A stretch of DNA of 32,000 nucleotides, from contig NZ_CP147990.1 of assembly GCF_037902255.1 (NCBI RefSeq), forward strand, positions 2,700,001 through 2,732,000, in the 5' to 3' direction. The translations under genes were made by a program, and so were the position numbers. Origin of the DNA: Candidatus Electrothrix sp. GW3-4. Its GTDB lineage: Bacteria; Desulfobacterota; Desulfobulbia; Desulfobulbales; Desulfobulbaceae. Positions 5,427 through 26,597 of this stretch are shown piece after piece (within the stretch, counting starts at the first letter, position 1; each line of letters begins with the position of its first letter). Under the pieces are notes generated by a model. That model was not told the DNA's origin and made no database searches. It worked only from the letters and a program-made list of their open reading frames with translations.

Positions 5427-7514
5427 CTACTCCTGATACCCCTGGGCAACCCGGAAGCCCACCCGGATGATACGCAGCCCTGGCGAGAGGCGAAAACGGA
5501 AGGAAGAGTGAATAGAGCGCTCACCACTATCCCAGGACCCGCCCCGCAGGACCCTGCCAGCCCCTCCATGTTCTGCGCCAGCAGGGTTGTTCATGGGCAA
5601 TTCGGTGTAATAATCCTTTTTATAGCTATCAGCGCACCATTCCCAGACATTACCATAGAGATCATGCAGACCCCAGGCATTGGCCTTTTTCCGGCCAACC
5701 GGATGGGTCATGTTACCGGCATTTTCGGCATACCAGGCATACTCATCCAGGAAGCGGGCATCATTGCCAAAGAAATACAGGGTATCCGTCCCTGCCCGGC
5801 ATCCGTACTCCCACTCCGCCTCTGTGGGGAGACGATAGGGCCTGCCCGTGACCATAGAGAGCCAATCGCAGTAATTATTGGCATCCTGCCAGCTCACGTC
5901 CACCACGGGTCGCCGTCCCCTGCCCCAGTCATTATCCGTGGGCCTGCGACTGCCTGTGACCATGCAGTAGAGATCATATTCCTCAAAGGTGACCGGATAG
6001 CGGCTCAGGGCAAAATTATCCAGTTCCACCTCATGCACGGGTCGGGCATCACCGGAACCCCCGCCCTGGATATCCCCCATCCTGAAACGTCCGCCAGGCA
6101 GCATGATCATTTCCGGACCTCTCATAACCCTGTTCCGTACCCGCCCCAACCGGTCCTGCCAGGAGAACATGGTCTTATAGGTCTCAGCGTAGCGAAAGGG
6201 GTTAAACTCGGCAAGATTGAGACGGTTCACATAATCGGTGATCCCGTGGGCCAGATCAAGAAAACGAACCATCTGATCCGTGGCCCGCAAAGGGGCAGGA
6301 AAGGGCCTGCTGTCATAGATCAAGGCATGGGCCAGAAGAAACTCCCGGTAGGTGCTATGGGTAAAACGGTAGGTCTGCTGTGTGGTCAGATGCAAAAGGG
6401 GCGGGGCGGGGCAACAATGAACAAACTGACAGATCTCGGCCTTTTCACAGAAGAGCTCCTGCAAGGCCCTCTCCCCGATCTCCCGGACCCCCTGTTCTTC
6501 CAGCCAACGGGCAAGACGAACATAGGCATTAAAGAGCTCAAAACGTTTGGGCGGACACCGGCAGCCGGTCTCATGCAGGGCGTCCACCTGCTGCTCCAAC
6601 CAATACTGAATCAGGGATTCATAGATCGTATAGGCGTCCCGGATCCGATGCTCTTCAATCTTGAGCAGGCTCTGAACATGCTGAAGGATCAGGGGCCGTC
6701 CTCCCAGCTCTCCCAGGCCTGCCAGGAGGAGGACGGCCTTTTTCCGCTGGCGCTCCACGCCGAAGCGCTGAAAGCCAATATAATTTCCCCTGTTGTGGGC
6801 AAGTCGCTTGCGCACGACCTGGCCAACCTGATGAGCCGCAAAGGGGGCCAGATAAAGGATCGGGCAATTATAGCCGGACAGGGCCCTGATCCGCAGTCGC
6901 CCGGTACTGTCCGGGGTCATGGCAGGGAAGAAATGGCTCCGGCAGGAAATCATCATCCGGTAAAAGGGTTCCCCGGCCCGCAGCAGGGGCAGGAGTCGCT
7001 CAAGGGGACGGCTCCGGGCCAGTCTATCCTCGTTCAGGGCATCAAGGAGCAGGACGGTTCGGGCCCGATTCTCCATGATCGCTATCTGGTCCAGGGTCTG
7101 CCCATCCAGCTTCAGGAGCTGGCAATCATATCCTTGGGGCCAAAACCCGGCCAGGTGCATCAACTTGATCATGAGCAGGAGAGAGCTCTTGCCCGCCCCT
7201 GGCTCCCCCAGCAGGAAGAGCTGGTGGCTTCCGTCCCGTTGCCCAGGAGGTCCGCTGGCAAGAAAGCTGTTGAGCAAGGAGAAGGCGGGCTGGCAGGGGT
7301 CAGAAGGGATCACACCGTGGCGGCGAGGGAGCGGTCGATAGGCCTGGAGACAGGGCTCAACATAGAATCGCGCGAGCTCCAGCGGGTTGGCAAAATCATC
7401 TCCTAACCGATCCAGCTCCTGTGCCTTCCCGCCGGTGGCTTGTTTGAGCTGTCGATACAGCTGCTTCATCCACTCGATATTGACAAAGGACAGTGCGTCC
7501 GGTCCCGATCCCAT
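5427..7514 (-). CDS. P-loop NTPase (NACHT/STAND-like) fused to C-terminal FGE/SUMF1-fold domain, paralog 1
   Basis: 695 aa. Walker A is GEPGAGKSS (about aa 103-110) and Walker B is TVLLLDALNED. A NACHT-like MMISCRSHFF strand follows. The C-terminal ~230 aa carry FGE-sulfatase family motifs (MLPGGRFRMGD, RYPVTFEEY, RLPTEAEWEYGCRAG, NAWGLHDLYGNVWEW, RVLRGGSWDS...VGFRV). No Cys occurs after RGGSW. Confidence 0.85.
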   Translation of the reverse strand: MGSGPDALSFVNIEWMKQLYRQLKQATGGKAQELDRLGDDFANPLELARFYVEPCLQAYRPLPRRHGVIPSDPCQPAFSLLNSFLASGPPGQRDGSHQLFLLGEPGAGKSSLLLMIKLMHLAGFWPQGYDCQLLKLDGQTLDQIAIMENRARTVLLLDALNEDRLARSRPLERLLPLLRAGEPFYRMMISCRSHFFPAMTPDSTGRLRIRALSGYNCPILYLAPFAAHQVGQVVRKRLAHNRGNYIGFQRFGVERQRKKAVLLLAGLGELGGRPLILQHVQSLLKIEEHRIRDAYTIYESLIQYWLEQQVDALHETGCRCPPKRFELFNAYVRLARWLEEQGVREIGERALQELFCEKAEICQFVHCCPAPPLLHLTTQQTYRFTHSTYREFLLAHALIYDSRPFPAPLRATDQMVRFLDLAHGITDYVNRLNLAEFNPFRYAETYKTMFSWQDRLGRVRNRVMRGPEMIMLPGGRFRMGDIQGGGSGDARPVHEVELDNFALSRYPVTFEEYDLYCMVTGSRRPTDNDWGRGRRPVVDVSWQDANNYCDWLSMVTGRPYRLPTEAEWEYGCRAGTDTLYFFGNDARFLDEYAWYAENAGNMTHPVGRKKANAWGLHDLYGNVWEWCADSYKKDYYTELPMNNPAGAEHGGAGRVLRGGSWDSGERSIHSSFRFRLSPGLRIIRVGFRVAQGYQE

Positions 7515-7845
7515 AGGTTCTTATCGTTGCAGTAACAGATTTAACTTACTCTAAAGGTAGCTGTATACACGGACAAAAAGAGACACACATCCCCGTCCCG
7601 CTATACTGCGATAAACATATTCCCTCCTCCCTCAAAAAAGATTATTTTTATTGTACCCTGAATGGGCCTGCGGCTCCACAGGTTATTTCGTTTTTGAAAG
7701 ACAGGTTGTTTGCTGGCAAGGATACGGGTGCTGCATCTGGTGAATGGTGGAATCAGGATGATGGGCGCGGGGCTGTCACCTGATGCGGGGGTCTTTCTAC
7801 GTTCGTCTCAAGGGGATGGTTATTATTTCCTATGTACGAAAGATA

Positions 7846-8139
7846 ATCCCCTGCCGCAGGATCATTCTTCGGTGGTGACGAGACGTTCGTCATCGTTGCC
7901 GGAACGTTCGAACATGTCGCAGCATGATTCCTCGGTGGTGCAGAAGCGTTCGTCACTGTCGCAGCATCATTCTTCAATGGTACCGAGACGTCCGTCACCG
8001 GTACAGGATCGTTCTTACCTCCCGCTGAGCCATTCTGCAGCGTCGCGGCATCGTTCGAACATAGCGCAGATTCATTCCTCGCTGGTGTCGAGGCATCCGT
8101 CACCGGTGCAGAACGTTCCTGATCTACCGCAGAGGCGTT
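7846..8139. repeat. degenerate tandem array, 14 units x 21 nt, open reading on both strands
   Basis: The minus strand parses exactly into 14 consecutive 21-mers: aacgcctctgcggtagatcag / gaacgttctgcaccggtgacg / gatgcctcgacaccagcgagg / aatgaatctgcgctatgttcg / ... / aatgatcctgcggcaggggat. The approximate pattern is RAY NNN NCN GYR NCR NNN NNG. It reads as heptads N-x-(S/A/P)-A-(P/T)-x-(T/K/R) on the minus strand and (R/H)-S-S-h-(V/S)-Q-x on the plus strand. Confidence 0.8.
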
Positions 8140-8221
8140 CTAAGATGATGCAGGAACATCCGGCGATGGCGTTGCAATATCAGGCAGGCCCATGCCCTGA
8201 AGGGGCAATATCTATCAGCCC

Positions 8222-8287
8222 GGGGTAACACCCTGGGCGAAACACCCTGAACCGGGTTCGCGGGGGAATTCCTCGGGGTGTTACCCC
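8222..8287. other. long-range perfect 12-bp inverted repeat enclosing smaller hairpins (candidate structured RNA or terminator-like element)
   Basis: ggggtaacaccc (8222-8233) pairs perfectly with gggtgttacccc (8276-8287), extendable by G-U/G-C pairs. The enclosed loop contains gaacc-g-ggttc and a GGAATTCC palindrome. It lies in the spacer between the two NTPase-FGE genes. Confidence 0.5.
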
Positions 8288-8397
8288 AAGCTGGGATTGT
8301 ATACCCCCGTTGGGGTATGGTGGTGGGGCGCGACGGGTCGGCTGGCGGCAGTGCCGTCCTGCTCCGCGACGGACAGGCATGCCTTGCGCCTCCCGTC

Positions 8398-10491
8398 TCA
8401 GCTGGCCTCCGGCCCCTGACCTGCCTGATGACCTGAGGCAAGGCGGAAGCCGTAGGAGGCGTAGCGGTCGCCCGGCGAGCTGCGGAGACGGTAGGCGGAA
8501 CGGACGTTCCCGCCGTCGTAGCTCCACGAGCCGCCCCGCATAACACGGTTGGAGCCAGATGAAGGCCCTTGGGGATTTTCCACCACCCCTTGTTTCTGAC
8601 ATTCAACATAGTATTTGCCACGATACCAATCCTGACACCACTCCCAGACATTGCCGTGCATATCGTGCACCCCCCAGCCATTGGCCCGCTTTTCCCCGAC
8701 TGGATGGGTCTTGTCACCGGAATTACCGAGATACCAGGCATACTCGCCCAGCGATCTTTCATCGTCTCCAAAACAATATACTGAATCACTGCCTGCCCGG
8801 CAGGCGTATTCCCATTCCGCCTCAGTGGGCAGGCGATATTGCTGCCCGGTCTCCCGGCTCAGCCACTGGCAATACTCCTGAGCATCCTGCCAGCTGACAT
8901 TGATCACTGGGCGTTGCCCCCTGCCCCATCCCTCATCCTTCGGCTTCTTCCTATCTGTAGCCGCACAAAAGGCATCGTACTCGGCAAAGGTCACCGGATA
9001 ACGTCCCAGGGCAAAGTTGTCCACCTCGACCTCATGGATCGGGCCGTTATCTTCATCACCCATCTGAAAACGCCCACCGGGCAGAAATATCATCTCCGGC
9101 CCTGCTGCGTCATTACTGAGTCGTCGATCCCGAAAAGCGGGAGCGCCATATGTATCTACGTACCCTTGCCAGTTGAATCCGGCCAGATCAAGCACCGTAT
9201 AGATCAAATAGAAACGATCCGCAAGCACAAGAAACCGCACCAGCTGGTCCGTGGCCCGCAGAGGTTCCTGGCCGACCAGCTGCTCATGCACCACGCCCCA
9301 GGCCAGCAGGAACTCCTGCACCGTATAATGACTGAAACGAAAGGCCCGGTCCGAGTTACGATTGAGCAGGGAACGCCCGCCCAGCTCAAACTTGTTCAGC
9401 CAGGCAATAGTTGGATCTTGCTGAATCAGCTGTTGCAGATCCCCTTCCGAGATGATCCGGGTGCTGTTTCCGTCCCGTTGTATCTGCTCCGCAATCCGTA
9501 GGCAGGCCAGGAAGAGCTCCTTGCGCTCCGGCACCTGTTGCCCCGGATACTGATCGCGGAGCTTGCGCACTTCCCTGTCCAGCCACTCATCCACCAAGGC
9601 CTCATAGACCGTATAGGCATTCCATTCCTGTTGGCAGTTCTTATCAAGAAGCTTGTCAATATGCTGCAAAAGCATGGGCCGCATGCGCAGATCCTGCATG
9701 TGCTCCAGCAGGCAGAAGGCCTTTTCCCGCTCTTTTTTTACCCGTCCGTATTGAAAACTGAAGTGATACCAGCGCAAGGGGAGTTTCCGCTCAATAAAAT
9801 CCCGTACCTGCGTGTCATTAAAAGGAGAGATAAAGAGCACCGGGCAATGGTGTCCGGAGAAAATTTTGATCTCGGCTCGTCCGAAGTTATCCGGTTCCAT
9901 CGCCGGGAAGAACTGGGTCCGGCTGGAGATGATCACCCGGCGAAAATCCTCACTGGCCTGCAGGAGTTCCAGCAGGCGTTCCTGAATCCGCTTCCAGGCC
10001 TTGGGGTCTTCATCCAGGGCATCCAGCAGCAACACGGTTTCGCTCTTATTGGGCAGGGCCTGCACCCGCTCCAGGGTATCAGCACCCAGCTTGAATAGCT
10101 CGCAATAATGCCCCGGCGGCCAGAACTTGGTCAGGTGCATGAGCTTGATCATGAGGAGCAGGGAGGTCTTGCCCATCCCGGCATCGGAGAGGATGAACAA
10201 CTGGTGGCTTCCGTCCTTTTCAAGCGGCATCTTTTTATTCTGAAAAAACTCGTTTATCCACTCGAAAGCCGCTTGCCGGGTCGCTGTCTGATGCTCATCC
10301 CGCAGCTCATCCGCCGAATTCCGATCCTGAAGATGCGGTTCAATGTAAATATCCCGGAGCTGCTCTGGATCAACAAACTCATCCCTCAGGCGATCCAGCT
10401 CCTTTTTCCGCTCTTCGCTTATCCGCCCCAGCTTTTTCCAGAGCGGCTTAATCCAGGCCGGTTTAACAAAGGTCAACACTTCCAGCGCCAT
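8398..10491 (-). CDS. P-loop NTPase (NACHT/STAND-like) fused to C-terminal FGE/SUMF1-fold domain, paralog 2
   Basis: It is colinear with paralog 1, with roughly half the residues identical by eye (DGSHQLFILSDAGMGKTSLLLMIKLMHL, TVLLLDALDED, VIISSRTQFFPAM, RLPTEAEWEYACRAG, NGWGVHDMHGNVWEW, RVMRGGSWSY...YGFRLA). The preferred start is the ATG at 10491, which has AGGAGGAG 5 nt upstream and aligns with the paralog 1 N-terminus. The ORF-track start at 10539 is less likely. Confidence 0.85.
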   Translation of the reverse strand: MALEVLTFVKPAWIKPLWKKLGRISEERKKELDRLRDEFVDPEQLRDIYIEPHLQDRNSADELRDEHQTATRQAAFEWINEFFQNKKMPLEKDGSHQLFILSDAGMGKTSLLLMIKLMHLTKFWPPGHYCELFKLGADTLERVQALPNKSETVLLLDALDEDPKAWKRIQERLLELLQASEDFRRVIISSRTQFFPAMEPDNFGRAEIKIFSGHHCPVLFISPFNDTQVRDFIERKLPLRWYHFSFQYGRVKKEREKAFCLLEHMQDLRMRPMLLQHIDKLLDKNCQQEWNAYTVYEALVDEWLDREVRKLRDQYPGQQVPERKELFLACLRIAEQIQRDGNSTRIISEGDLQQLIQQDPTIAWLNKFELGGRSLLNRNSDRAFRFSHYTVQEFLLAWGVVHEQLVGQEPLRATDQLVRFLVLADRFYLIYTVLDLAGFNWQGYVDTYGAPAFRDRRLSNDAAGPEMIFLPGGRFQMGDEDNGPIHEVEVDNFALGRYPVTFAEYDAFCAATDRKKPKDEGWGRGQRPVINVSWQDAQEYCQWLSRETGQQYRLPTEAEWEYACRAGSDSVYCFGDDERSLGEYAWYLGNSGDKTHPVGEKRANGWGVHDMHGNVWEWCQDWYRGKYYVECQKQGVVENPQGPSSGSNRVMRGGSWSYDGGNVRSAYRLRSSPGDRYASYGFRLASGHQAGQGPEAS

Positions 10492-10583
10492 TCTGCTCCT
10501 CCTTCCCCAAAAAACGTTTTCCGCTTGCCAATAGATCAAGCACAGGTTTAAACAACAGAGGATACCATAAAAGAGGAGAAGAG

Positions 10584-11677: not shown

Positions 11678-12394
11678 ATGAACAAATATCTTCATCTCCT
11701 TTTCGCAGGCGCTGTTTTCCTCTTCCCGTTCCAGATACATGCCCAGGACAAGCTTGCTCCTGTGGAGCAAAAACGGCAGGAGACAATGCAAACCAATATG
11801 GCCAAGAATATGGCAGAAAATATCCGCCAAAATTCGACGCTGAGCGAACAGGAAAAGGCATATATGTTTCGCTTGAGCATGCGCAAGATGATGATGGAAA
11901 AGATGCGCAGGTCTGGTAGAACAATCTGGGACTGGGAACCCACGGAATGGCAAAAGACCTTACCAGCTATCGTGGTCCAGGACGGGGAGGCCACCCAGGA
12001 GTACAGCTTTACCGACCTCATCAACGCGGACGGTTATCTCTGCCCTGGTTCCGCCCGGGCCTATAAGGCGCTCCAGGTTGCCCTGCCCATCCTTTACGGG
12101 AACACCACACCGGTCAAGGGCGATTTCAAGATCACCCACGGCGCAGCCTTATGCACCTCCCTGGTCTATGATTTTTTTATGGAGGGCTATACAGAGAAAG
12201 AATTTCTTGAACTGGACATGGGCCTGAAAGAAAAACTCATCTCCATCGAACGGCTCTCCACCGGCAAGAAGGTAAGGCTCGTCTTCATACCCTCAGCAGT
12301 CCGGGGGCATGATCCGGCAGCAGCTCAAGCAGGTGACGTTATCCTCCATGCCCAGGAGGGGGAAGGCATGACGGTTTATATTGAGGAGGGGTGA
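11678..12394 (+). CDS. secreted hypothetical protein with Met-rich region; possible FmdE-like CPG motif
   Basis: The ATG at 11678 gives a signal-peptide-like MNKYLHLLFAGAVFLFPFQIHAQ. The Met-rich stretch is ETMQTNMAKNMAENI...MFRLSMRKMMMEKMRR. The C-terminal part has DGYLCPGSARAYKA. The upstream extension to 11573 in the ORF track is unlikely. The product call is weak. Confidence 0.6.
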   Translation: MNKYLHLLFAGAVFLFPFQIHAQDKLAPVEQKRQETMQTNMAKNMAENIRQNSTLSEQEKAYMFRLSMRKMMMEKMRRSGRTIWDWEPTEWQKTLPAIVVQDGEATQEYSFTDLINADGYLCPGSARAYKALQVALPILYGNTTPVKGDFKITHGAALCTSLVYDFFMEGYTEKEFLELDMGLKEKLISIERLSTGKKVRLVFIPSAVRGHDPAAAQAGDVILHAQEGEGMTVYIEEG

Positions 12395-13232
12395 GGCAGG
12401 ATCGGCCCAATCCTATCCCCGCCCTGGCCACTCTTCCACGTCCCTTCCTCCCACTCCCGCTCCTCCCAGAGTGGACAACGGGCGCGTATACACTCTGGGT
12501 TTTTCTCGTATTGGTTACAATGGAGAACAGCCTCTGCTGGCAGGGCTCGACCGAAAAAGGCGGCGGAGAGACGGGAGGCAGAGACCAGGGCCAGCCAGGA
12601 ATCACGCTGACAGCACCGCCCCCCTTTATTCGAGCAATCTCGGTCAGGATCTTCGCGGTAAAGGCCAGGGCATTCTGACGCTCAGCCGCCTTTAACGGGG
12701 TCGCCTCCAAGATCAGGGCAGCGGCAATGCCAGCACCCACAGCTGCACCACAGCAGCCCCAAAATCCACAGACCCCACCAGGCACATTCGAGCCCCGATT
12801 GATCCCGGTGCTAATGATATCCTGACTGATTTTCCCACCGCTATTGCGATAGGCAGCCAGGATCACGCCAGGCACCAGGGCATGATGTTCTGGTCCGTGC
12901 ATCGGGACCGCAGGATGGTTGCGGATACGATTCATCAGGGCAATCAGATCCTTTTCCCTGCTGTTCAGGCAGACCGAGCGGATAACCTCAAGGCCTTCCT
13001 GCTGGTGACAACTATCGCAGACATAATGACCAGCCCCGCAGATACAAGGAGTAATGGCCTCGCGACCGCAGAAAAAGCAGCTCGCCGCTGTGCAGCTATT
13101 GCTTTGATAGACCAGCTCTTCACCGCAGATGATGCAACCACTGACATGACGGATAAAGGCAGCGCCTCCTGACTTGACGGCATTATTCGGCCCGGTCTCA
13201 TCTGGGGGACAGCGCAGCAGCAGGCCTCCTGC
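12339..13232 (-). CDS. fragment 3 of the composite gene: Cys-rich domain (zinc-ribbon-like CxxC pairs, HGPEHH, GFWGCCGAAVG motifs)
   Basis: A frame open from 13232 encodes ...[48 protein letters not shown]...MHGPEHHALVPGVILAAYRNSGG...VCGFWGCCGAAVGAGIA. It has no ATG/GTG/TTG start before 12935. From memory it resembles a family annotated DUF5714; this is unverified. Confidence 0.7.
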   Translation of the reverse strand, partial: AGGLLLRCPPDETGPNNAVKSGGAAFIRHVSGCIICGEELVYQSNSCTAASCFFCGREAITPCICGAGHYVCDSCHQQEGLEVIRSVCLNSREKDLIALMNRIRNHPAVPMHGPEHHALVPGVILAAYRNSGGKISQDIISTGINRGSNVPGGVCGFWGCCGAAVGAGIAAALILEATPLKAAERQNALAFTAKILTEIARIKGGGAVSVIPGWPWSLPPVSPPPFSVEPCQQRLFSIVTNTRKTQSVYAPVVHSGRSGSGRKGRGRVARAGIGLGRSCLTPPQYKPSCLPPPGHGG

Positions 13233-13990
13233 TCAATATTAGCAACAGCTCCTTCCTCATCAAGCAGAAAGACCTGCTCACTAAGCTGTTCTGCTTCCCG
13301 ACGCGAGAGTGCAGTGATATGCCCGCGTTCCAGACGCACTCCTGAGGGTGTTTCCAGAGCTGGCGCAGGCCCCCGGAAGAGACAACGAACCCGCTCCTCT
13401 TCCCCCTCAGCCCGTTCTGCCTTGCCTGCCTCATAGGTCAAGGAGTAAAAGAAATGCCCATCCACCTCCCGATAGGAAAAACGTTTATGGAGATAGATTG
13501 AGGAAAACCCACAATCCTCTAACATGGCAACAAGGTCATCCTGCTGCATGGCCCCGCCCAGGCACTCACCCCGATACTTGGTGCTGTTCTTAATCGCTGC
13601 ACTGATCGGCGTATCGCTGACCACATCAGCCACCACCAGCCGACCGCCCGGTTTGAGGATCCGCATGATCTCCAGATAGGTCCTGCGCTTATCCGGACTG
13701 AGATTGATCACACAGTTAGAGATAACCACATCCGCTGTTTCATCAGCCAAGGGAATGGCCTCCAGATAGCCTTTGCGGAACTCGATATTATCATAGCCCA
13801 GGTCGGTCACCACATGCTTTTGAGAACTGCGAGCCAACTCCAGCATGGCATCGGTCATATCAATACCAAAGACCTGCCCGCTGGCCCCGACCTCAGCAGC
13901 GGCGAGAAAGCACTCCACCCCGCTGCCAGAGCCCAAATCCACCACAGTTTCCCCTTTTTGAGGGCAGCATCCTTGACCGGACTGCCGCAC
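12965..13990 (-). CDS. fragment 2 of the composite gene: SAM-dependent methyltransferase (ArsM/UbiE-like)
   Basis: Contains [39 protein letters not shown]...[39 protein letters not shown]. Only about 13204-13951 looks genuinely coding in this frame. The tail after AVPQ is low-complexity. Confidence 0.85.
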
Positions 13991-15573
13991 CCGTAGGATC
14001 GCTCTTTTGCCTCCTCAGGAATATAACCGTCCTGCCCTGCCGCCGGATGAAAGGGGTTAACGATCTCGGTATTGGCCTGCCGGGCAGCAGCACTGTAAAA
14101 CTCCTGCACTGGAGAATGGCCGTCGCTATCCGCCAGGGAGACCAGACAATTACAATGGGTCAGACGGACTGAGCCGTCCGAGCCGTTTTCTGTGTCCGGG
14201 CAATCATGGCGCACATCGCCCATCCGCAAGCGAAACAGCCCCTGATCAGGATATTGCATTGCCTGGCTCGTAATGAGCTGTAAGGCCAGCTGCTCATAGA
14301 GATCAATATAGGGATCATGCCCGACCAGCTCATGACCACTCACCCAGGAATGATCCGGGTCCCCACCGCCAGTTATCAACGATAAGGGACGCCTCCTCTC
14401 TTCCCCGGCGTCTATTTGACTGATCGTACGAATCTTGCGCAGCGTAAGGTTATTCTTCCAGATATCTGCCAGCCCCTGATCCAGATGCCCGCAGGCAAGC
14501 TCTTCCACCCGAATCAGGGCAGGGGAGGGATAGAGGGTCCCATCCGGGGCCACAGCCAGGGATTCCCAGGCCATATTGCTCAGGTCAAAACGGGCACCGG
14601 GAACGGCAAAGACCTGGGCCTTCATGGCCTCCAGATTATCGATCTTCATCCCTAACTCCTGACAGACCTCAGCGGCCTTAATAATCCGGGAGAAGAGGCG
14701 GACCACGGGCACAAACTGAGCGCTTGTTCCTTTGCCCTGGACAAAATGATACATTAGATGAAGGCCGCTGGCGCCCAGGGCATGGGCCTGACGGGCTATC
14801 TCATCCAGCCGTTCTACATTATCATTATTCACAGCCACGGAGACAGTAAAGGCCAGCCCTGCCTTGACAATGGCCTGAAGATTCACGCAAAGTCTACTGT
14901 AGGCATTCCGTCCCCGGAGAAAATCATGTTCTTCTTCCAAGCCGTCCAGGCTGACCTGGAGATGAATCCGCTCATGATCCATCGCCGCCAACTCGGCAAG
15001 ATGCTCCTGGAGGAGTAACCCATTGGTCAGGATCGCCACATGATGGGCCGGGTCCTGTTGCAGGACGTAGTCAACGGTCTGGCAAAAATCAGGATAGACA
15101 AAGGGCTCACCACCGGTGAAGTAAAAAAGATGGGTCCCCAGTGCCGTGGCCTGATCAATGGCATCGTGCAACCGTCCCCTCTTCATGCTTTCCTTCCTGC
15201 TTGGAGAGGCCGCAAAGAGGCAATGGACGCAGGAAAGATTGCAGGTATCGGTGAGATGAAACCAGATCTCTTGCAAAGACCCCAAACGCAGATGGTGATG
15301 GCGCCCCTGATAGGGCCGTGGCGCTCCTTGATCCAGGAGCTGTGCTAAACGGCGCAGATCGCGTCCGACCCTGTCTGGTTCTTCGTTGCGAAGATCACAG
15401 AATGCAGCCAGCCCGGCAGCCCGGTTGCCATGTTTATGACAGGCCCTGAGCAGTTCATCAATGCGGGTGGAAGGAACAAACCAATCCGGTCGCTCTTGGT
15501 CAATATACACCGGCATACCGGCATGTTCAATTCGATGCAGTCGTGTGAGCCATTGCATAGGCATGGAGAACAA
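13855..15573 (-). CDS. fragment 1 of the composite gene: radical SAM domain protein (CxxxCxxC) plus ArsM-like N-terminal region
   Basis: Contains [15 protein letters not shown] (a CX3CX2C radical SAM cluster motif) and FYFTGGEPF. The later [11 protein letters not shown]...YGCGSPV is the N-terminal part of ArsM-type methyltransferases. The last ~30 aa of the ORF-track product are out-of-frame read-through. Confidence 0.85.
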
Positions 15574-16087: not shown

Positions 16088-17149
16088 ATGAACCCATCCA
16101 TTACAACCTCACCGGTTCCCCAACCTCCGGTGGAACAAAATAATACCCCGGATGTTGCCCCGGAACAATCTGTCCAGGAGATAAACAGGGCTGTCCAGAA
16201 CAGCTCGGCCTGGGTGGGACTGCTGAAACGAGAAGTGGAAAAAAATATTATCGGTCAGGAGCGCCTGGTGGAACGCCTCCTCATCGGCCTGCTCTCAGGC
16301 GGCCATATCCTGCTGGAGGGGCTCCCCGGCCTGGCCAAAACCCTGGCCGTAAAGACCCTGGCTGCGGCCGTGTCCACGGATTTCCGTCGTATCCAGTTTA
16401 CCCCGGATATGCTGCCCGCAGATATCATGGGCACAGAGATCTACAATCCACAAAACACCTCCTTTGAGGTCAAACAGGGCCCGATCTTCTCCTCCATCAT
16501 CCTGGCGGACGAGATCAACCGGGCCCCTTCCAAGGTGCAATCGGCCCTACTGGAGGCCATGCAGGAAAAGCAGGTCACTATTGGTGAAACCACCTTTTCC
16601 CTGCCCGAACTCTTTCTGGTCCTGGCCACCCAGAACCCCATTGAGCAGGAAGGAACTTATCCCCTGCCCGAGGCCCAGGTGGACCGTTTCATGCTCAAGG
16701 TGGTGGTGAATTACCCCACCCGCAAGCAAGAGCGGCAGATCCTGGACATGGTGGAGCATACCGACTCCAAGCTCGCTGTGCAGCCGCTCATCGCTCCCGA
16801 GGATATCCTCGGGGCCCGCAAGGTGGTGGACACTATCTATCTGGACGACCGGATCAAGGAGTATATTGTGGATCTGGTCTTTGCCACCCGGGAACCAGAA
16901 GGCATCAGCACGGAGTTAAAAGACTATATCGAGACCGGGACCTCGCCCAGGGCCACTATCAACCTTAAGGCTGCGGCCCGGGCCCTGGCTTATCTCAATG
17001 GGCGCGGTTATGTGATCCCGGATGATATCAAAAACTGTGCCCCGGATGTGATGCGCCATCGCCTGCGGATCAGCTATGAAGCGGAGGCCGAAGGGGTCAC
17101 CAGCGAGGATATTATTCAGCGCCTGCTGGATACGGTACCGGTACCGTGA
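16088..17149 (+). CDS. moxR: MoxR-family AAA+ ATPase
   Basis: 353 aa with IIGQERLVERLLIGLLSGGHILLEGLPGLAKTLAVKTLA (Walker A), ILADEINRAPSKVQSALLEAMQE (Walker B and sensor) and ATQNPIEQEGTYPLPEAQVDRF. GGAG SD lies upstream. Confidence 0.95.
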   Translation: MNPSITTSPVPQPPVEQNNTPDVAPEQSVQEINRAVQNSSAWVGLLKREVEKNIIGQERLVERLLIGLLSGGHILLEGLPGLAKTLAVKTLAAAVSTDFRRIQFTPDMLPADIMGTEIYNPQNTSFEVKQGPIFSSIILADEINRAPSKVQSALLEAMQEKQVTIGETTFSLPELFLVLATQNPIEQEGTYPLPEAQVDRFMLKVVVNYPTRKQERQILDMVEHTDSKLAVQPLIAPEDILGARKVVDTIYLDDRIKEYIVDLVFATREPEGISTELKDYIETGTSPRATINLKAAARALAYLNGRGYVIPDDIKNCAPDVMRHRLRISYEAEAEGVTSEDIIQRLLDTVPVP

Positions 17150-17258
17150 TGTAAGAGGCAGAGGCCAAAAAAACGAAAGACAGCATTCGCAGTCCCTTTA
17201 AGGGCTTATATATCTTCACCCAGGGCAACACCTTGGGTCTGTGCAGCAGCCAAGATAC

Positions 17259-18174
17259 ATGGAAAAAGCAATCACCAAGGAAATCCTGAAAAAGGTCCGC
17301 CGTATTGAGGTGCGTACCCGCCACATGGTGGATAGTACCCTGGCCGGGAGCTACCACTCGGTCTTTAAGGGCCAGGGCATGAACTTCGACGAGGTTCGTG
17401 AATACGTGCCTGGCGATGAAATCCGCAGCATTGACTGGAACGTTACTGCCCGCACAGGGATCCCTCATGTGAAAAAATTCACTGAGGAGCGGGAACTGAC
17501 CATCATGCTGATGATCGATATCAGCGGCTCAGGCGGTTTTGGCTCCCAGGATCAATCCAAGCGGGAGATGATGGCTGAGCTGGGTTCGGTGCTGGCCTTT
17601 TCTGCGGTACGCAATAACGACAAGGTCGGCCTGATCCTGTTCTCTGATTTTGTGGAGCTCTTCATCCCACCAGATAAAGGGCGCAAGCATATCCTCCGGG
17701 TGATCCGGGAGATCCTCTTTTTCCAACCCAAGAATAAGGGCACGGGCATCACCGAGGCCCTGGATTTTGTTAACCGGGTGGCCAGACGTAAATGTGTGAC
17801 CTTTCTTCTCTCTGATTTCTGCCTACCTGGTGATTTTGACGATTCCCTGGCAGCACTGCGCCCCAAACTCCTGGTCACCGGGCGTCGTCACGACCTGATC
17901 ACGGTCTCGGTCACCGACCCCAGAGAGCAGGAGCTGCCCGATGTGGGCCATATTACCCTGGAAGACGCGGAAACCGGTGAGCAGCTGGTCCTCAACACCG
18001 CTGATCCCTGGACCCGCCAGGCCTATGCCAATCTGGCCCTTGATCGGAGCAGAGCGTTTTGCCCATACTGTGCGCAGTGCTGGCCTTGACCTGCTGCTGC
18101 TCTCCACGGACCGGCCCTACATCGGCCCGTTGATGGGATTTTTCAAAGCACGGGAAAGGAGGAAGGGACGATGA
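17259..18174 (+). CDS. DUF58 family protein (MoxR-operon partner), apparent 1-nt insertion frameshift
   Basis: Contains DUF58 motifs GSYHSVFKGQGMNFDEVREYVPGDEIRSIDWNVTAR. The annotated frame ends at 18089 (..RAFCPYCAQCWP). The +1 frame continues with a typical DUF58 C-terminus (FAHTVRSAGLDLLLLSTDRPYIGPLMGFFKARERRKGR) and ends at TGA 18172-18174, overlapping the next ATG as ATGA. The break is at the T4 run 18057-18060. Confidence 0.8.
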
Positions 18175-18932
18175 AATCATTCTTTTTTCGGTGCAGAACA
18201 GGAGGGGCCGCCCCCTGTGCCTGCCCGTTTATGTCCTCCAGCGGACGTTCAGGGCGAACACAGGGGGTCGCCCCTACAGCATTCCTACTCATTCTTTTCC
18301 TGACAATGCTCCCTGCCGCTGTCTCTGCGGATCAGGTGACGGCTCCCCTTGCGGATCCGGCACAAAAGTTAGGGCAGGGGCAAGCTGCGACCCAGCCAGA
18401 CCATCTGAAGGAACCAGCCCTTGCTGACAATCAGCTCTATGATATTCGGGAGCCTATCCCGATCCCGGACAGCAAACGATTTCTCTGGTGGATTGCCGCA
18501 ATACTGGCCGGGATCCTGCTGCTGGGCCTGCTCTTCTTTTTCTGGAAAAAAAGAACCCGCAGACAGAAGGCGGTGCTGGCCCACCAAACCGCCCTGCGTG
18601 AGCTGGATCGGGCTGGGCCCCTGATTGAGCAGCAGGACATCAACGCCTTTATCACCCTGATTGACCAGACCCTGCGTCGCTATATAGAGCAACGTTTCGG
18701 GATCTTCGCCCGCAGACAGACCACTCGGGAGTTTATCCACGGGCTGGCTGAAGGTCAAAAAAATGTGCCACAATCCTTGATGGAAAATTCTGATAACCTG
18801 AAGACCTGGCTCCAACATTGCGATCTGGTGAAATTCGCCAAGGCGGGCCTGAGCCAGGAGACCATGACCGATATGGTCGCAAACCTGCGTACCTTTATTG
18901 CATCAACCAAGATGGAGGCAAAAGAAAAATAA
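18171..18932 (+). CDS. membrane protein, DUF4381-like (Bat/MoxR operon)
   Basis: 253 aa with a central TM segment (WWIAAILAGILLLGLLFFFW) followed by KKRTRR and a helical domain ending ...WLQHCDLVKFAKAG, as in DUF4381 proteins of Bat operons. It is translationally coupled on both sides. Confidence 0.75.
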   Translation: MKSFFFRCRTGGAAPCACPFMSSSGRSGRTQGVAPTAFLLILFLTMLPAAVSADQVTAPLADPAQKLGQGQAATQPDHLKEPALADNQLYDIREPIPIPDSKRFLWWIAAILAGILLLGLLFFFWKKRTRRQKAVLAHQTALRELDRAGPLIEQQDINAFITLIDQTLRRYIEQRFGIFARRQTTREFIHGLAEGQKNVPQSLMENSDNLKTWLQHCDLVKFAKAGLSQETMTDMVANLRTFIASTKMEAKEK

Positions 18933-19927
18933 TGGACAGCCTTCGTTTTGTCTCTCCTGATCTGCTCTGGTTGCTGCTCCTCCTCCCTGTTCTGGCCTTC
19001 CTGCGAGGGCGACAAGGGCCAGCACCAAGCCTGGTTTTTTCCTCCATCTCGGTAGCCAAGGCCATCTCCGGTAGCCGCAAGGTCAGCCCCGGTAAATTCC
19101 TGGCCTGGTTGCGCCTGGCAGCTCTCGGTCTCCTCATCGTGGCTATGGCCGGGCCCCAATGGGGCAATACCAAGACCGAGGTGGAGGCCTCAGGCATTGA
19201 TATCCTGCTGGCCGTGGATGTTTCCGGCTCCATGCAGGCCATGGATTTCCGCCTGCAAGGAAGGAACGTGGACCGCCTGACCGTGGTCAAGGCCGTGGTG
19301 AAAAAATTCATTGAAGAGCGGCCTAACGACCGCATCGGGCTGGTGGCCTTTGCTGGCCGTCCCTATATGGTCTGCCCTCTGACCCTGGATCATGACTGGC
19401 TGCAGCTCCGCCTGGATTCGCTGCAAACAGGCATGATTGAAGACGGCACAGCCATTGGCTCTGCCATTGTCGCGGGTGTGAACCGGCTCCGGGACCAGGA
19501 GGCCAAATCCCGGATCGTGATCCTGCTCACCGACGGGGTCAATAATGCCGGTAAGGCCGCACCGCTCACAGCTGCCGAGGCCGCAGAGACCATGAAGATC
19601 AAGGTCTACACCATCGGCGCGGGCAAACGTGGGGTCGCCCCCATGCCGGTGGAAGATCAGTTCGGGCGCAAGCGGATTATTCGGGCCCAAGTGGATATTG
19701 ATGAAAAAACGTTGGGCAAAATCGCCGAGATGACTGGGGCCAAGTATTTCCGGGCTACCGACACCAAATCTCTGGAGAAGATCTACGAGGAGATCAACGC
19801 GATGGAGGCCACCACCCGAAAGATCAAGCATTTTGCTCGCTATCGGGAGCTGTTTTCCTGGCTGGTCCTTGCGGCCTTGGTCCTGCTGGGGGTGGAGTTG
19901 TTTATTTCGCGGAGAAGGTTGCCGTAG
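18932..19927 (+). CDS. von Willebrand factor A domain membrane protein, BatA-like
   Basis: The ATG at 18932 overlaps the upstream TAA and gives MDSLRFVSPDLLWLLLLLPVLAFL (TM). The MIDAS motif is DILLAVDVSGSM. It also has RIVILLTDGVNNAG and a C-terminal TM segment. The ORF-track start at 18818 is unlikely. Confidence 0.9.
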   Translation: MDSLRFVSPDLLWLLLLLPVLAFLRGRQGPAPSLVFSSISVAKAISGSRKVSPGKFLAWLRLAALGLLIVAMAGPQWGNTKTEVEASGIDILLAVDVSGSMQAMDFRLQGRNVDRLTVVKAVVKKFIEERPNDRIGLVAFAGRPYMVCPLTLDHDWLQLRLDSLQTGMIEDGTAIGSAIVAGVNRLRDQEAKSRIVILLTDGVNNAGKAAPLTAAEAAETMKIKVYTIGAGKRGVAPMPVEDQFGRKRIIRAQVDIDEKTLGKIAEMTGAKYFRATDTKSLEKIYEEINAMEATTRKIKHFARYRELFSWLVLAALVLLGVELFISRRRLP

Positions 19928-23681: not shown

Positions 23682-26597
23682 CTACGCCTCTCTTTTCCAC
23701 ATTGTCTGCATTCCAAACCAGCTTAGCAGAACCATTGCTGCGGCAGGAATGAGCATCCACAGCCAACCGAAATGCATGGTCAACCAGGCAGAACCAACTA
23801 TAGGCATCAGCAGGGCTCGGGTGGCAGGACGTAGGATCATGTTACTGCTGATCACATCAGCAATGGGCGGTGAGTAGCGATAGTACAGATGCACCAGACC
23901 ACGGCTCACCGGGTTATCCAGCATAAAGCGATCACGGAAATCACGAAGGACTTTAACTGCCGGATGAAAGAGCGAACCATAGGCAGCTGTGGCGACAAAG
24001 CAGGAATCTGCGGTTTGAAAACCGACCTGGTTCCCGTAATAGGTGGTGCCACCGACCACGGCATAGGCCCGGGCATAGAAGAAGGTACCGGGTTTGAGGT
24101 CTTCCATCCTGACGGTAAAGCTTCCAGTGCCAGAGCCCCCGTCTGCGCTTCCCTCTTCCAGGAAATCACTATCCTCGGTGTCTTCGTCGTCGGTGGTGTC
24201 CATGGTATCGGTGCTATCTGTATCGTCTTGAGCTATCGCGGTGCTGACAAACAGGCTTCCTACACTCTCCAGGGCGGTGGCCAGGCCGGTTTGCATGGGG
24301 GATGTAGAAGCGACCTGATCTTCGGCAGAAAAGATGGGGTTTTTGTACAGGGATGTGGTTGTGGTAAACGAAATGACGGCTGAATCTACGGTGTCAGAGC
24401 TGGTAAAGGCACATCTGATATAGTAATTATACGAAGTAGCCGCCGACAGCCCGCTGATATCGGCACTATGCGCTGTGCCGCCAGTGACATCCATCTCCGT
24501 ATAATCAAAGATATTGCTGGAAGAACCTTCATGGTATCCACACCGAGCTGACTCACTGGTGGTAACGGTGAGAGTGACTTCGGTACTGCTTGTGGTCGTT
24601 GCGTAAGAGTCAGTAATAGTCGGCGTTGTTGTACTCGTGCTCGTCGTTGTCGCAGAAACTGTAAAGGTTATCTCTGTCCCTGCGGTGGTTATATTGTCTG
24701 ATTGATCTTTACAGCGTACGTAAAAGGTGTAAGGCTCTCCCACCTCTGTTTCCGGCAGTGTCCCCAAAATAACATGATGGCCAGTCCCAAAGGAGGAAGA
24801 GAGGATGCCACCCATCTCCCCGTAATCTTCGTCAAAGTTCGCATTATACCGGCAGGTGGCCTCCTCATCCGTAGAAACGACCAAAATAACTGGCTCTGTT
24901 GTTAAAAAAGAGCTCTCGGTGCTGCTGATGGGGACCGGACCTGTTTCATCGGTCGTGGAACTGGTGCTATCATCCGTCGTTGTATCATCAGTGCTATCAT
25001 CAGTTGTATCATCGCTCGTATCGTCGCTCGTATCGTCGGCTGCATCATCGCTCGTCGTATCGCTGTCTTGCAAAACAGGAAGAGGATCCTTGCTAAATAC
25101 AATTCCTCGCTCTTCGACAATACCCAAACCTGAAGAGATGGTCACCGGAATCAAGGCCGTTGTCCGGGTCACGTCTTCAGGTGTACCGGTCACAATATAC
25201 GAATTTCCCGTCGCCGTACCAAAGGAGGTACCGGTAACACTTGATTGAAAAATATTATATTGCATGACCTGCGCACTGGCGACTTCTTCAGCACCGCTGG
25301 CCCCCACCACAACCACACTCCCAACCCCAGTGGCCGCAAGGGAAAAGGCATAACTCTCTTCATTATCCATTTCCGTGGTGACGATCTGGGCCGTGAGTTC
25401 GCTTACGTCTGTTTCTTCATCACTGGCCTCTGCGCTATCACCTGGAGCAGCGGCCATCGCTGCCACCTGCTGCTGAAAGAGCTCGCTATTGCCTTTATCT
25501 TCTTTGGTATAGGTGATCAACAGGGACTCACGCATTCCATCTTCCCCGGTGGTCACGCCGGTTGCCGCGATCATCTCATCATTCACTAAGACATCGTAAA
25601 AAACCGTGTCCACGTCATCGTCAGTGACAAGCACGCCCAGCTTGCCGAACTCCCTATCTGGCAAGCCATCCTCGCCAAAAAGGAATAAGGCCCCATCCCG
25701 TTCTCCGTCTTCCCCGACAGAGCCAGCAACCAAAATACTGCCGTCGCTGCGGATTGCCATACCGTAACCCGCGCTGGGTACCGTGCCATCCAGGGGCACA
25801 GTCACGCCATCATAACCAAAAGAGGTATCCAAATCGCCGTTTTCATCATAGGCAAGCACCATGAGGGCAGCATTTTCTTTCTCCCGATAGGTACCGGCAA
25901 CAAGGATACGTCCCTCTTCAGTCAGCAGCAGACTTCCAGCCTGGGCATCTGTCCCCACAGCACTCAGGGTAAATCCCTCATCGGCAAAGGTCGAATCCGG
26001 GCTTCCGTTACTTTGATACCGAGCCAGCACCACGACCCGCCCCTCATCACCTAGGGCCGTTCCGGTCAGCAGGATCCTGCCATCCTCTTGCACAGCAATA
26101 CCGGTAATCTTATCATCAGAATCACTGACCGCCGTCACCACCATGCCCTCCAGGCCGAAATCCCGATCAAGGGAGCCGTCGCTGTTATAGCAAAGCAGGG
26201 CAAAATCTTGGCTCCCGTCCTCACTGGTGCTATAGCCCCCGGCCAGGATCTTGCCGTCCGCTTGCAGAGCCAGGGCAAAGACCTCATCGTCATGGGACCC
26301 AACCGCGGTGGAGACGGTGCCGTCAAGATTGAACTCGCTATCCAGGGATCCGTCCGCAAGGAGGCGAAAGAGCATGAAATCCAGATCAGCGGTGTTGGAG
26401 GTCGAACCTCCCACCAAGATCTTACCATCCGGCTGCACAAGCACGGCATTGGCCTGATCACCGTATGAACCAAGGTCCACAGCGACCTTTCCATTCTTGC
26501 CGAAACCGGTATCAAGGGAGGCTGCAAAGGATTGAGCAGTGAAGACAGCAATCGAGAAGAGACAGAGGGCAGTAAATGTGATCGGACGAATGCTCAT
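23682..26597 (-). CDS. large secreted/anchored surface protein with delta-60 repeats, acidic D/T/S linker, two Ig-like modules and a C-terminal CFVATAAYGS + TM anchor region
   Basis: 971 aa. The signal peptide is MSIRPITFTALCLFSIAVFTAQSFA. It has about 7 repeats of the pattern LD.SFG..G.V...........A.A...Q.DGKIL..G. The linker is DDTSDDTSDDTTDDSTDDTTTDD. Two ~95-aa modules share A.C.Y...Y.EM...H...Y.(F/Y)Y(V/I)RC. The C-terminus is CFVATAAYGSLFHPAVKVLRDFRDRFML... plus hydrophobic helices. Confidence 0.85.
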   Translation of the reverse strand: MSIRPITFTALCLFSIAVFTAQSFAASLDTGFGKNGKVAVDLGSYGDQANAVLVQPDGKILVGGSTSNTADLDFMLFRLLADGSLDSEFNLDGTVSTAVGSHDDEVFALALQADGKILAGGYSTSEDGSQDFALLCYNSDGSLDRDFGLEGMVVTAVSDSDDKITGIAVQEDGRILLTGTALGDEGRVVVLARYQSNGSPDSTFADEGFTLSAVGTDAQAGSLLLTEEGRILVAGTYREKENAALMVLAYDENGDLDTSFGYDGVTVPLDGTVPSAGYGMAIRSDGSILVAGSVGEDGERDGALFLFGEDGLPDREFGKLGVLVTDDDVDTVFYDVLVNDEMIAATGVTTGEDGMRESLLITYTKEDKGNSELFQQQVAAMAAAPGDSAEASDEETDVSELTAQIVTTEMDNEESYAFSLAATGVGSVVVVGASGAEEVASAQVMQYNIFQSSVTGTSFGTATGNSYIVTGTPEDVTRTTALIPVTISSGLGIVEERGIVFSKDPLPVLQDSDTTSDDAADDTSDDTSDDTTDDSTDDTTTDDSTSSTTDETGPVPISSTESSFLTTEPVILVVSTDEEATCRYNANFDEDYGEMGGILSSSFGTGHHVILGTLPETEVGEPYTFYVRCKDQSDNITTAGTEITFTVSATTTSTSTTTPTITDSYATTTSSTEVTLTVTTSESARCGYHEGSSSNIFDYTEMDVTGGTAHSADISGLSAATSYNYYIRCAFTSSDTVDSAVISFTTTTSLYKNPIFSAEDQVASTSPMQTGLATALESVGSLFVSTAIAQDDTDSTDTMDTTDDEDTEDSDFLEEGSADGGSGTGSFTVRMEDLKPGTFFYARAYAVVGGTTYYGNQVGFQTADSCFVATAAYGSLFHPAVKVLRDFRDRFMLDNPVSRGLVHLYYRYSPPIADVISSNMILRPATRALLMPIVGSAWLTMHFGWLWMLIPAAAMVLLSWFGMQTMWKREA

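Follow-up and report, generated by a model that had tools for sequence, protein, structure and literature searches.

The window of this study is a stretch of 32,000 nt from Candidatus Electrothrix sp. GW3-4 (contig NZ_CP147990.1, positions 2,700,001 to 2,732,000), one of the cable bacteria, which grow as centimetre-long multicellular filaments. On its minus strand lie two neighbouring genes, here named A and B, each coding for a predicted STAND/NACHT-like nucleoside triphosphatase (NTPase) that is fused to a C-terminal domain of the formylglycine-generating enzyme (FGE) or C-type lectin (CLec) fold. An original prediction made from the letters of the window had described two same-strand paralogous open reading frames (ORFs) of about 695 codons, and both were confirmed: the two proteins are colinear paralogues that align end to end with 46% identity (E = 0), and a spacer of 883 nt separates their genes. 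The ORF of B offers an alternative TTG start at 10539 (8398–10539), while the database protein begins at the ATG at 10491. The features of the two genes are as follows, with VR denoting a variable region of the type made by diversity-generating retroelements (DGRs), NNC any codon that ends in C, and positions counted from the first letter of the window:

5427–7514, minus strand: gene A (P0001), 695 amino acids (aa), domain order as in B, VR-equivalent segment invariant
6135–7514, minus strand: N-terminal helices and NACHT-like module of A (aa 1–460)
7182–7208, 7026–7052, 6936–6956 and 6330–6365, minus strand: Walker A, Walker B, sensor-1 strand and winged-helix domain (WHD) His motif of A
5445–6119, minus strand: FGE/C-type-lectin-fold domain of A (aa 466–690), closest structure TvpA (2y3c)
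5460–5531, minus strand: frozen VR equivalent of A (DSGERSIHSSFRFRLSPGLRIIRV), near-invariant in Electrothrix and Electronema, with mainly synonymous variation and without NNC bias
8398–10491, minus strand: gene B (P0050), 697 aa from the ATG at 10491; helical N-terminus, NACHT-like module and FGE/CLec domain with a hypervariable, putatively DGR-type VR
9073–10491, minus strand: N-terminal helices and NACHT-like module of B
10162–10188, 10006–10032, 9916–9936 and 9301–9336, minus strand: Walker A, Walker B, sensor-1 strand and WHD His motif of B
8428–8559, minus strand: block of B homologous to an inferred template repeat (SGSNRVMRGGSW…GFRLASGH), its scaffold common to the proteins P0226 and P0228
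8452–8523, minus strand: VR core of B (SYDGGNVRSAYRLRSSPGDRYASY), 17 of 20 variable codons ending in C

The motifs that had been listed for the NTPase region are present in both proteins, namely the Walker A (GEPGAGKSS in A; SDAGMGKTS in B, with Ser in place of the first Gly), the Walker B (LLLDALNED in A; LLLDALDED in B) and the (M/V)IIS(C/S)R-type strand. A NACHT-type winged-helix motif, F(T/S)H..(Y/V)(R/Q)EFLLA, which the original prediction lacked, was found in A and B in addition. In an alignment of 46 sequences, G106, G108, K109, D158 and D163 were invariant, as was the sensor-1 arginine R192 of the MMISCR / VIISSR strand, and F384-x-H386…E391-F-L-L-A was near-invariant in the family. 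AlphaFold models of A, built from a 46–48-sequence alignment, reached a pLDDT of 86 and a pTM of 0.84 for the full-length protein and a pLDDT of 84.6 and a pTM of 0.88 for residues 1–460. The latter model aligned with the NACHT modules of NOD2, NLRP3 and NLRC4 over about 480 columns (E 4e-12 to 1e-8, TMq about 0.5), and the full-length model matched NOD2 at E 2.5e-11. The predicted order of nucleotide-binding domain (NBD), helical domain (HD) and winged-helix domain could be read from the model of A as NBD-HD1-WHD(-HD2), while the profile scores of the same region stayed below the curated Pfam cutoffs, both for nSTAND3 (PF20720, 16.1 and 18.6 bits vs. 27.2) and for NACHT (PF05729, 14.4 bits, cutoff 26.7). 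NCBIfam EruA, a NACHT antiphage protein, gave a weak match (19–25 bits vs. a cutoff of 1000). Within the family, nSTAND3 was matched by 24 of 48 members at E up to 0.01, and more distant relatives of the module exceeded its cutoff (P0389, 30.2 bits; P0331, 28.2 bits). By these structural matches and motifs, the predicted assignment of A and B as STAND/NACHT-like NTPases with a C-terminal sensor holds at the level of fold and motifs.

A profile of both N-terminal modules retrieved 2,036 cluster representatives, 663 of them at E ≤ 1e-30. Most homologues aligned from query residue 5–15 onwards, and the extra domains of module relatives, where present (TIR, DUF4062 or a second STAND NTPase), are located N-terminal to the module; therefore, residues 1–95 of A and B are part of the conserved module and contain no effector, in line with the earlier failure to recognise one there by eye. 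The C-termini of nine scanned relatives were FGE, pentapeptide or WD40 domains, or a second STAND NTPase. From this distribution, A and B are predicted to be effector-less members of a large antigen-receptor-type STAND family.

The C-terminal domains of A (residues 466–690) and B (residues 481–701) matched FGE-sulfatase PF03781 at E 4e-55 and 2e-56, respectively, as the original prediction would have it. The top PDB match of the A model was TvpA (2y3c), the DGR variable protein of Treponema denticola (E 5e-18, TMt 0.73), followed by PvdO and FGE, with FGE structures at E about 1e-16. Genuine FGEs carry a catalytic, copper-binding Cys pair in the segment after RGGSW, and lectin/FGE-fold DGR variable proteins have their VR in this same segment. 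No Cys was found in the RGGSW…(F/Y)R segment of A (RGGSWDSGERSIHSSFRF) or B (RGGSWSYDGGNVRSAYRL), as had been noticed before; a variable segment sits there instead. The C-terminal domains could instead be active enzymes of the SUMF1/EgtB/PvdO superfamily, joined to a regulatory ATPase, as their database names ('formylglycine-generating enzyme family protein', 'SUMF1/EgtB/PvdO family nonheme iron enzyme') and partial NCBIfam matches to PvdO and EgtB would suggest. We consider this scarcely credible, since the variable segment stands where an FGE has its Cys pair, the PvdO/EgtB matches reach 75–118 bits vs. cutoffs of 360–500, the closest structure is the non-enzymatic TvpA, and no gene for a sulfatase, as a substrate, or for a biosynthetic partner was present in the 32-kb window. 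These results indicate that the C-terminal domains of A and B are non-catalytic, with the last ~45 residues as the predicted ligand-binding surface. The database names are misleading for these proteins. The earlier view that they are not sulfatase maturases was thus borne out. That the Cys-less segment is merely a lost active site was not, given its NNC-biased hypervariability in B and its frozen counterpart in A: by the characters described below, the segment is a DGR-type VR, hypervariable in B and frozen in A.

In the family alignment, the column entropy of the VR window was 1.7 bits in the B clade vs. 0.35–0.55 bits in the A clade, and the variable positions of B were confined to the last 45 residues; despite this hypervariable VR, the NTPase of B is more conserved than that of A. 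The A-clade segment RGGSWDSGERFIRSSFRFRLSPGLRIIRVGFRVA was almost invariant from Electrothrix to Electronema, whereas the B clade was hypervariable at scattered positions. DGR templates are rich in AAC codons of which only the adenines are mutated; VR codons therefore retain C as their last base and seldom encode K, E, Q or M. In B, 17 of the 20 variable VR codons ended in C, compared with 26% in the rest of the gene (p 9e-8), which was the strongest bias among the genes tested. The other B-type genes had 60–70% C-ending variable VR codons vs. 18–34% in the rest of the gene (Fisher test across B-type genes, p 1e-2 to 9e-8), and 54–75% of the VR codons ended in C in genuine DGR targets used as controls (L025, L037 and L055), while A-type genes showed no NNC bias in their VR equivalent. 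Further, K/E/Q/M made up 3.6% of the VR positions of the B clade vs. 20.9% of those elsewhere, a six-fold depletion (p 1e-25). Between most pairs of syntenic orthologues, the VR differed mainly at codon positions 1 and 2 (0.35–0.57 per site) and less at position 3, in contrast to the rest of the gene with its usual excess of differences at position 3. Because codons rich in A reach any residue, the observation that all variable columns fit one template is weak alone, and the NNC restriction and the K/E/Q/M depletion are the informative part. Read from the codons, a signature of adenine mutagenesis appears in B and the B clade and not in A. The frozen segment of A consists almost entirely of NNC-reachable residues and now varies mainly at synonymous sites, in keeping with a VR that underwent diversification before it became fixed. 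For the duplication with divergence that was first proposed, the codon and entropy signatures therefore substitute a targeted hypermutation of one copy, probably driven by a retroelement.

Two lectin-only proteins of the same genome, P0226 and P0228, end in SGS(D/F)RVMRGGSW…VRSA(Y/C)R…GFRLASGH, in the same frame as SGSNRVMRGGSW…GFRLASGH of B. They differ from B in 16 of 44 columns, at which the simplest template codon keeps the third base of B, almost always C. From these three same-genome proteins (B, P0226 and P0228), we infer a template repeat (TR) of the sequence TCT GGC TCC AAC CGT GTT ATG CGG GGC GGC TCG TGG AAC AAC AAC GGC AGG AAC GTC CGT TCC GCC TAC CGT AxC CAC AAC TCG CCG GAC AAC CGC AAC xAC AAC AAC GGC TTC CGC CTT GCC TCA GGT CAT. 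Lectin-only targets of Electrothrix (E. marina, L009 6805–7704; P0226; P0228) were also seen to have long read-through C-terminal tails, and the tail of P0228 is a translation of DNA similar to the intergenic stretch that precedes the E. marina gene, a hint that lectin-only targets may stand in tandem.

A discrete DNA block of B, 126–129 nt long, recurs in the B gene of Electrothrix MFD10219 and in a lectin-only gene of E. marina that is not orthologous to B. The latter two genes have in common a sharply bounded stretch of 129 nt with 84% identity, in which 20 of the 21 mismatches fall on codon positions 1 and 2, and outside of which blastn found one match of 47 nt only. A block thus bounded, with mismatches at positions 1 and 2, points to the overwriting of different genes by cDNA of near-identical templates, not to ordinary divergence. 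Scanning of metagenomes with a TR-like pattern yielded 40 AAC-rich, template-repeat-like sequences, and three loci were inspected. In one of them (L025), a reverse transcriptase (RT) with a YMDD motif is followed by the TR and then by a lectin-only target whose VR differs from the TR at adenines only; this VR, RGGSWNFYGRNVRSAYR…GFRLALGH, is in register with that of B. The closest real TRs matched 0.76–0.82 of the non-A sites, and none was cognate. Hypervariability without a retroelement, by positive selection, relaxed constraint or gene conversion between paralogues at the C-terminus of B, was weighed against these data. Neither a TR nor an RT was directly observed for B, and the several paralogues of each genome could exchange sequence. 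However, ordinary substitution gives no NNC restriction, no K/E/Q/M depletion and no fixed third base, it leaves the bounded block in non-orthologous genes with 20 of 21 differences at positions 1 and 2 unexplained, and the scaffold resembles real TRs; we regard this alternative as very unlikely, and DGR-type diversification of B as the better account.

The syntenic B genes fall into two scaffold classes, those of GW3-4 and MFD10219 being close to the L025-type template and those of E. scaldis (closed genome CP138355) and E. communis (closed genome CP130629) to the L023/L033 type. The scaffold of the former (window 8428–8559 and L008) reads …NVRSAYR…GFRL(A/V)(S/L)G(H/Q) and that of the latter (L001 6994–9099 and L006 10001–11998) …(D/V)CRSA(C/Y)R…GFRC(A/V)RVQ. 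The metagenomic TRs nearest to the one class are not those nearest to the other, which suggests that B was retargeted by another template as the species diverged. A further metagenome contig (L055 50–6678) encodes, in order, Trypco2, a 493-aa protein, a MoxR-like AAA_5 ATPase, an 882-aa FGE target and a 337-aa lectin-only target that is 64% identical to the E. marina protein; its layout resembles clade 5A of Doré. The contig ends 125 nt past the last gene, and no RT was encoded before its end at this locus of Trypco2, MoxR, long target and short target (P0216).

Window position 8552 is the starting point in each of two independent short-read assemblies of GW3-4 samples, and a short-read contig from the same project covers 8,552 nt of the window without a mismatch. 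At this position, a 31-mer for the first time takes in base 2 of the codon following TGG, with which the VR core opens. A break at this position implies another sequence in the sample that has at least 30 nt of flank in common with B, including the AAC codon, and then diverges. P0226 and P0228 carry D and F at that codon, and so neither of them is the branching sequence. A TR would fit, as far as the behaviour of an assembly can tell. Many Electrothrix FGE-family matches lie on contigs of 0.8–3.4 kb, which may likewise reflect assembly breaks at variable regions.

On this evidence, B is best read as a remote DGR target, recognisable from its codon and scaffold signatures with the retroelement out of view. 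Jointly, we hold it probable that A and B are NLR-like STAND receptors, B being a present or recent target of a DGR located elsewhere and A an old frozen duplicate. Continuing diversification and a role in conflict or immunity would go with this reading, and with it we infer that an RT and a TR exist in the genome.

A number of results weigh against it. The 32-kb window contains no RT, Avd or TR, as judged by blastn of both gene 3′ ends, a scan for TGGAACAAC and a six-frame scan for RT motifs, and none was found within 8–10 kb, or up to the contig end, of seven related FGE-gene loci (L001, L003, L005, L006, L007, L053 and L054). The cognate TR of B is accordingly a reconstruction and was not seen as such. 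The VR of B was identical in the reference and two sequencing runs, and ongoing diversification was not seen in them. A and B have no recognisable effector or effector-associated domain (EAD), the proteins of the window gave no match in PADLOC (best E 0.038 to 0.076), where the predicted defence affiliation might have shown, and the locus is syntenic and in a housekeeping setting. Finally, none of the STAND-FGS proteins has yet been put to an experimental test (Doré 2024, PMC10907252).

Other searches for the retroelement gave the same picture. No RT was present at L052, where the two top FGE-domain matches stand in tandem, nor a TR in ~300 nt upstream of the E. marina target. A scan of a genome collection with the pattern of the B VR (GW3-4 not among its entries) returned orthologous or related VRs only, in two other Electrothrix MAGs (metagenome-assembled genomes). 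Weak matches in the window near 26,030–26,090 were considered as a TR and rejected, being a 28-codon out-of-frame stretch inside a DUF5122 beta-propeller gene.

These negative results would also suit a relic: a DGR once diversified B, but GW3-4 has since lost the retroelement or carries it in an inactive form, A and B are now receptors that no longer change, and the differences among species date from earlier times. In its favour, neither the window nor the surroundings of the paralogues examined contain an RT or a TR, the reference and both read sets agree in the VR of B, and A demonstrates that a VR can freeze within this family. In contrast, the three GW3-4 proteins keep an identical scaffold and differ only at inferred template-adenine positions, and the NNC bias of B, at 17 of 20 codons the strongest of the genes tested, indicates little synonymous drift since the last homing. 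The assembly graphs, moreover, break where a TR copy would branch. We rate a relic as an unlikely alternative to a DGR that is still active or was so recently.

E. scaldis and E. communis have the same gene order as GW3-4 at this locus (amgK-like kinase, B, A, trkA and rpmH-rnpA-yidD-yidC-jag), and the short contig of MFD10219 keeps B, A and trkA. All neighbours in the window are housekeeping genes (jag, yidC, rnpA, trkA, the amgK-like kinase, a Bat-like operon, tilS, ABC transporter genes, mscS and znuA), with no mobile or defence genes among them, and no protease, TIR or nuclease gene is adjacent to A or B. The locus is not a defence island, and the accessory locus that had been envisaged gives way to a conserved one. 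A syntenic, invariant core locus had been named as a finding that would speak against a conflict module; the synteny is there, but the invariance is not, B being its most variable part. In the Electronema genomes sampled, A-type and B-type genes are on different contigs and not adjacent. Each Electrothrix genome has at least two or three NTPase-FGS copies, and full-length homologues of A and B come almost only from cable bacteria.

Such a setting could also house a core, lineage-specific NTPase switch for endogenous signalling that is unrelated to invaders and whose ligand comes from the cable bacteria themselves (an envelope or filament component, for instance) or from their environment. The synteny and housekeeping flanks in E. 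scaldis and E. communis, the A-trkA end kept in MFD10219, the binding surface of A that is conserved across two genera, the lack of an effector and of a defence-island context, and the near restriction of full-length homologues to cable bacteria all speak for it. On the other side, the hypervariable DGR-type VR of B argues for a changing ligand, the same NTPase module is elsewhere fused to TIR, DUF4062, pentapeptide and WD40 domains, which are typical of conflict-type STANDs, and STAND-FGS proteins have been placed in conflict systems (PMC8195603). We rate endogenous signalling, too, as improbable without dismissing it, and retain the reading of A and B as receptors of which B is tuned by a distant DGR.

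STAND NTPase-FGS systems with a DGR nearby or elsewhere in the genome have been described computationally (Kaur, Iyer, Burroughs & Aravind 2021, PMC8195603), and FGS is one of two antigen-receptor-type C-termini of bacterial NACHT proteins (Kibby 2022, bioRxiv 10.1101/2022.07.19.500537); these surveys substantiate what the original prediction had said about FGE-fold sensors on STANDs. 'Neutralising' FGS domains were proposed by Kaur et al. (PMC7159879). DGR loci with two STAND-CLec targets each occur in multicellular bacteria, in clade 5D for instance as DGR 3 and 6 of Thiohalocapsa PB-PSB1 (PMC10907252), and DGR-diversified STAND-FGS 'antigen sensors' have been proposed as an adaptive immunity of multicellular bacteria. 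No link between cable bacteria and DGRs was found in the literature searched, and cable bacteria are absent from the hosts in these surveys of STAND-FGS systems, including the text and supplements of Doré 2024.

Like the STAND NTPase-FGS and clade 5D proteins, A and B have an N-terminal extension, a central NACHT or nSTAND NTPase and a C-terminal VR-bearing FGE/CLec domain, and they occur as adjacent duplicates, several per genome, in a multicellular host, with the DGR possibly elsewhere. Unlike them, they lack an adjacent RT or TR, an effector or EAD at the N-terminus and a protease or TIR gene as a neighbour; one copy is variable and the other frozen, and the locus is a syntenic housekeeping one. 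TvpA resembles the C-terminus of A in its FGE-type C-type-lectin fold, its C-terminal VR and its non-catalytic nature, but it is a stand-alone protein without the NTPase module. The cognate DGR of TvpA is adjacent to its gene. With the NACHT modules of animal NLRs (NOD2 5irm, NLRP3 and NLRC4) and with bNACHT/Avs proteins, A and B have in common NBD-HD1-WHD, Walker A and B, the sensor-1 Arg, a WHD motif of the type FxHxxxQEFLAA and a C-terminal sensor after the NTPase. Their sensor is a single lectin-fold domain, however, instead of LRR or TPR repeats, they have no CARD, PYD, nuclease or TIR effector, and they stay below the Pfam NACHT and nSTAND3 thresholds and have no PADLOC match. FGE (SUMF1) and PvdO have the same fold and PF03781 in common with A and B, which differ from them in lacking the copper-binding Cys pair and nearby sulfatase or pyoverdine genes and in not reaching the curated NCBIfam cutoffs. 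A and B hence belong to a known, computationally defined kind, of which the host, the tandem pair of a variable and a frozen copy and the lack of an effector domain are new. The locus fits an existing prediction rather than overturning one, and adds a tractable natural contrast.

In the mechanism that we propose, A and B would act in the cytoplasm as STAND proteins of the 'antigen-receptor type', within the STAND NTPase-FGS systems that computation has defined in multicellular bacteria. An error-prone RT would copy a TR rich in AAC codons into cDNA that is mutated only at adenines, and this cDNA would overwrite the VR of B, re-randomising roughly 16 to 20 codons; the two lectin-only proteins of the genome appear to draw on this template as well. 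A would be an old duplicate, its VR of apparent NNC origin and probably under purifying selection since before Electrothrix and Electronema split, and it would retain a single ancient specificity. A ligand bound at the lectin surface may then release the NTPase switch, with nucleotide exchange and oligomerisation to follow. Because neither A nor B has a fused effector, the output would have to come from a partner in trans or consist in sequestering what the receptor has bound. A role of the pair in conflict or immunity is suggested by this scheme.

More speculatively, and in our estimate doubtful, the tandem pair may be a fixed two-receptor module, with B as a hypervariable DGR-tuned sensor and A as its helper or as the guard of a conserved self ligand. 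Paired sensor/helper NLRs of plants offer an analogy, and an analogy only: they, too, are adjacent NLR-like paralogues of which one evolves fast and one is conserved, while an interaction of A with B is hypothetical and the A- and B-types of Electronema are on different contigs. If true, such a module would be a bacterial counterpart of the plant pairs with somatic-style diversification in addition, which belongs to the core genome of a multicellular filament and does without a fused effector. Within one gene pair, a binding site that appears to be re-randomised can be compared with the same site unchanged across two genera, and the pair may be used to study the ligands of such receptors, a frozen VR as a domesticated specificity, and signalling by an effector-less NLR-like protein.

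The flanks of the two genes contain three further features:

7515–7700, minus strand: conserved region 5′ of A, including …CCCATTCAGGGTACAAT…, recognised by alignment conservation
7857–8174, no strand assigned: tandem repeat block with a 21-nt period in the A-B spacer
8170–8397, minus strand: hairpin-rich conserved element directly 3′ of the B stop codon

The conserved stretch upstream of A suggests that A may have a promoter of its own. The repeat block has a 21/42-nt period, a unit of about GAnGAAyGnTCnTGCnnCAnn, GAACGTTC palindromes and ~13 units as counted by eye, and was found in GW3-4 and E. scaldis but not in E. communis and MFD10219. A coding function was considered and rejected: both strands have open frames in GW3-4, but stops interrupt them in E. 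scaldis, and two species lack the block. It is probably a non-coding satellite. The repeat-bearing spacer had been taken as a sign of an arms race; the repeat itself is there, while its relevance falls away with its absence from two species, and it is probably incidental.

The hairpin-rich element (CCCCAACGGGG; GGGGTAACACCCC, which pairs with GGGTGTTACCC; GCCCCTTCAGGGC) has a folding z-score of -3.7 and is present in all four Electrothrix species compared. Copies were also found 3′ of other VR-bearing paralogues and at unrelated sites (L002 578–621, L054 1683–1729, L005 ~12212 and several sites of L006), and it looks like a dispersed element of the REP (repetitive extragenic palindromic) type. 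At the gathering threshold, Rfam found nothing in the window, and the window has no tRNA genes; below it, the element matched Acido-Lenti-1 in three loci (27.7–31.4 bits vs. a gathering score of 37), and each of the three matches is directly downstream of a VR-bearing FGE gene.

Two neighbours were considered as partners of the pair and set aside. The amgK-like kinase beside B was considered as a link to ternary systems (weak TCAD9 match, E 1e-4), but it is nearest to AmgK in NCBIfam, below cutoff, and the match is probably to a general kinase fold. The MoxR (AAA_3)/DUF58-vWA/DUF4381/BatA-vWA operon (16088–19927), 5.5 kb from B, looks like one of the ordinary Bat type, showed no VMAP or effector domains and was not linked to the pair. 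On the minus strand, 12339–15573 encodes radical-SAM, methyltransferase and DUF5714 regions as three ORFs, two of which overlap by ~136 nt; the counterpart is a single gene for 1054–1072 aa in E. scaldis (L001 1145–4309) and E. communis (L006 4110–7328), and the split may come from a frameshift, from decay into a pseudogene or from a faulty assembly. E. scaldis (L001 6222–6786) and E. communis (L006 9193–9757) have a PIN toxin-antitoxin pair, of a PIN-domain toxin and a small partner gene, inserted next to B on the side of the amgK-like kinase, where GW3-4 has neither (~10540–10583).

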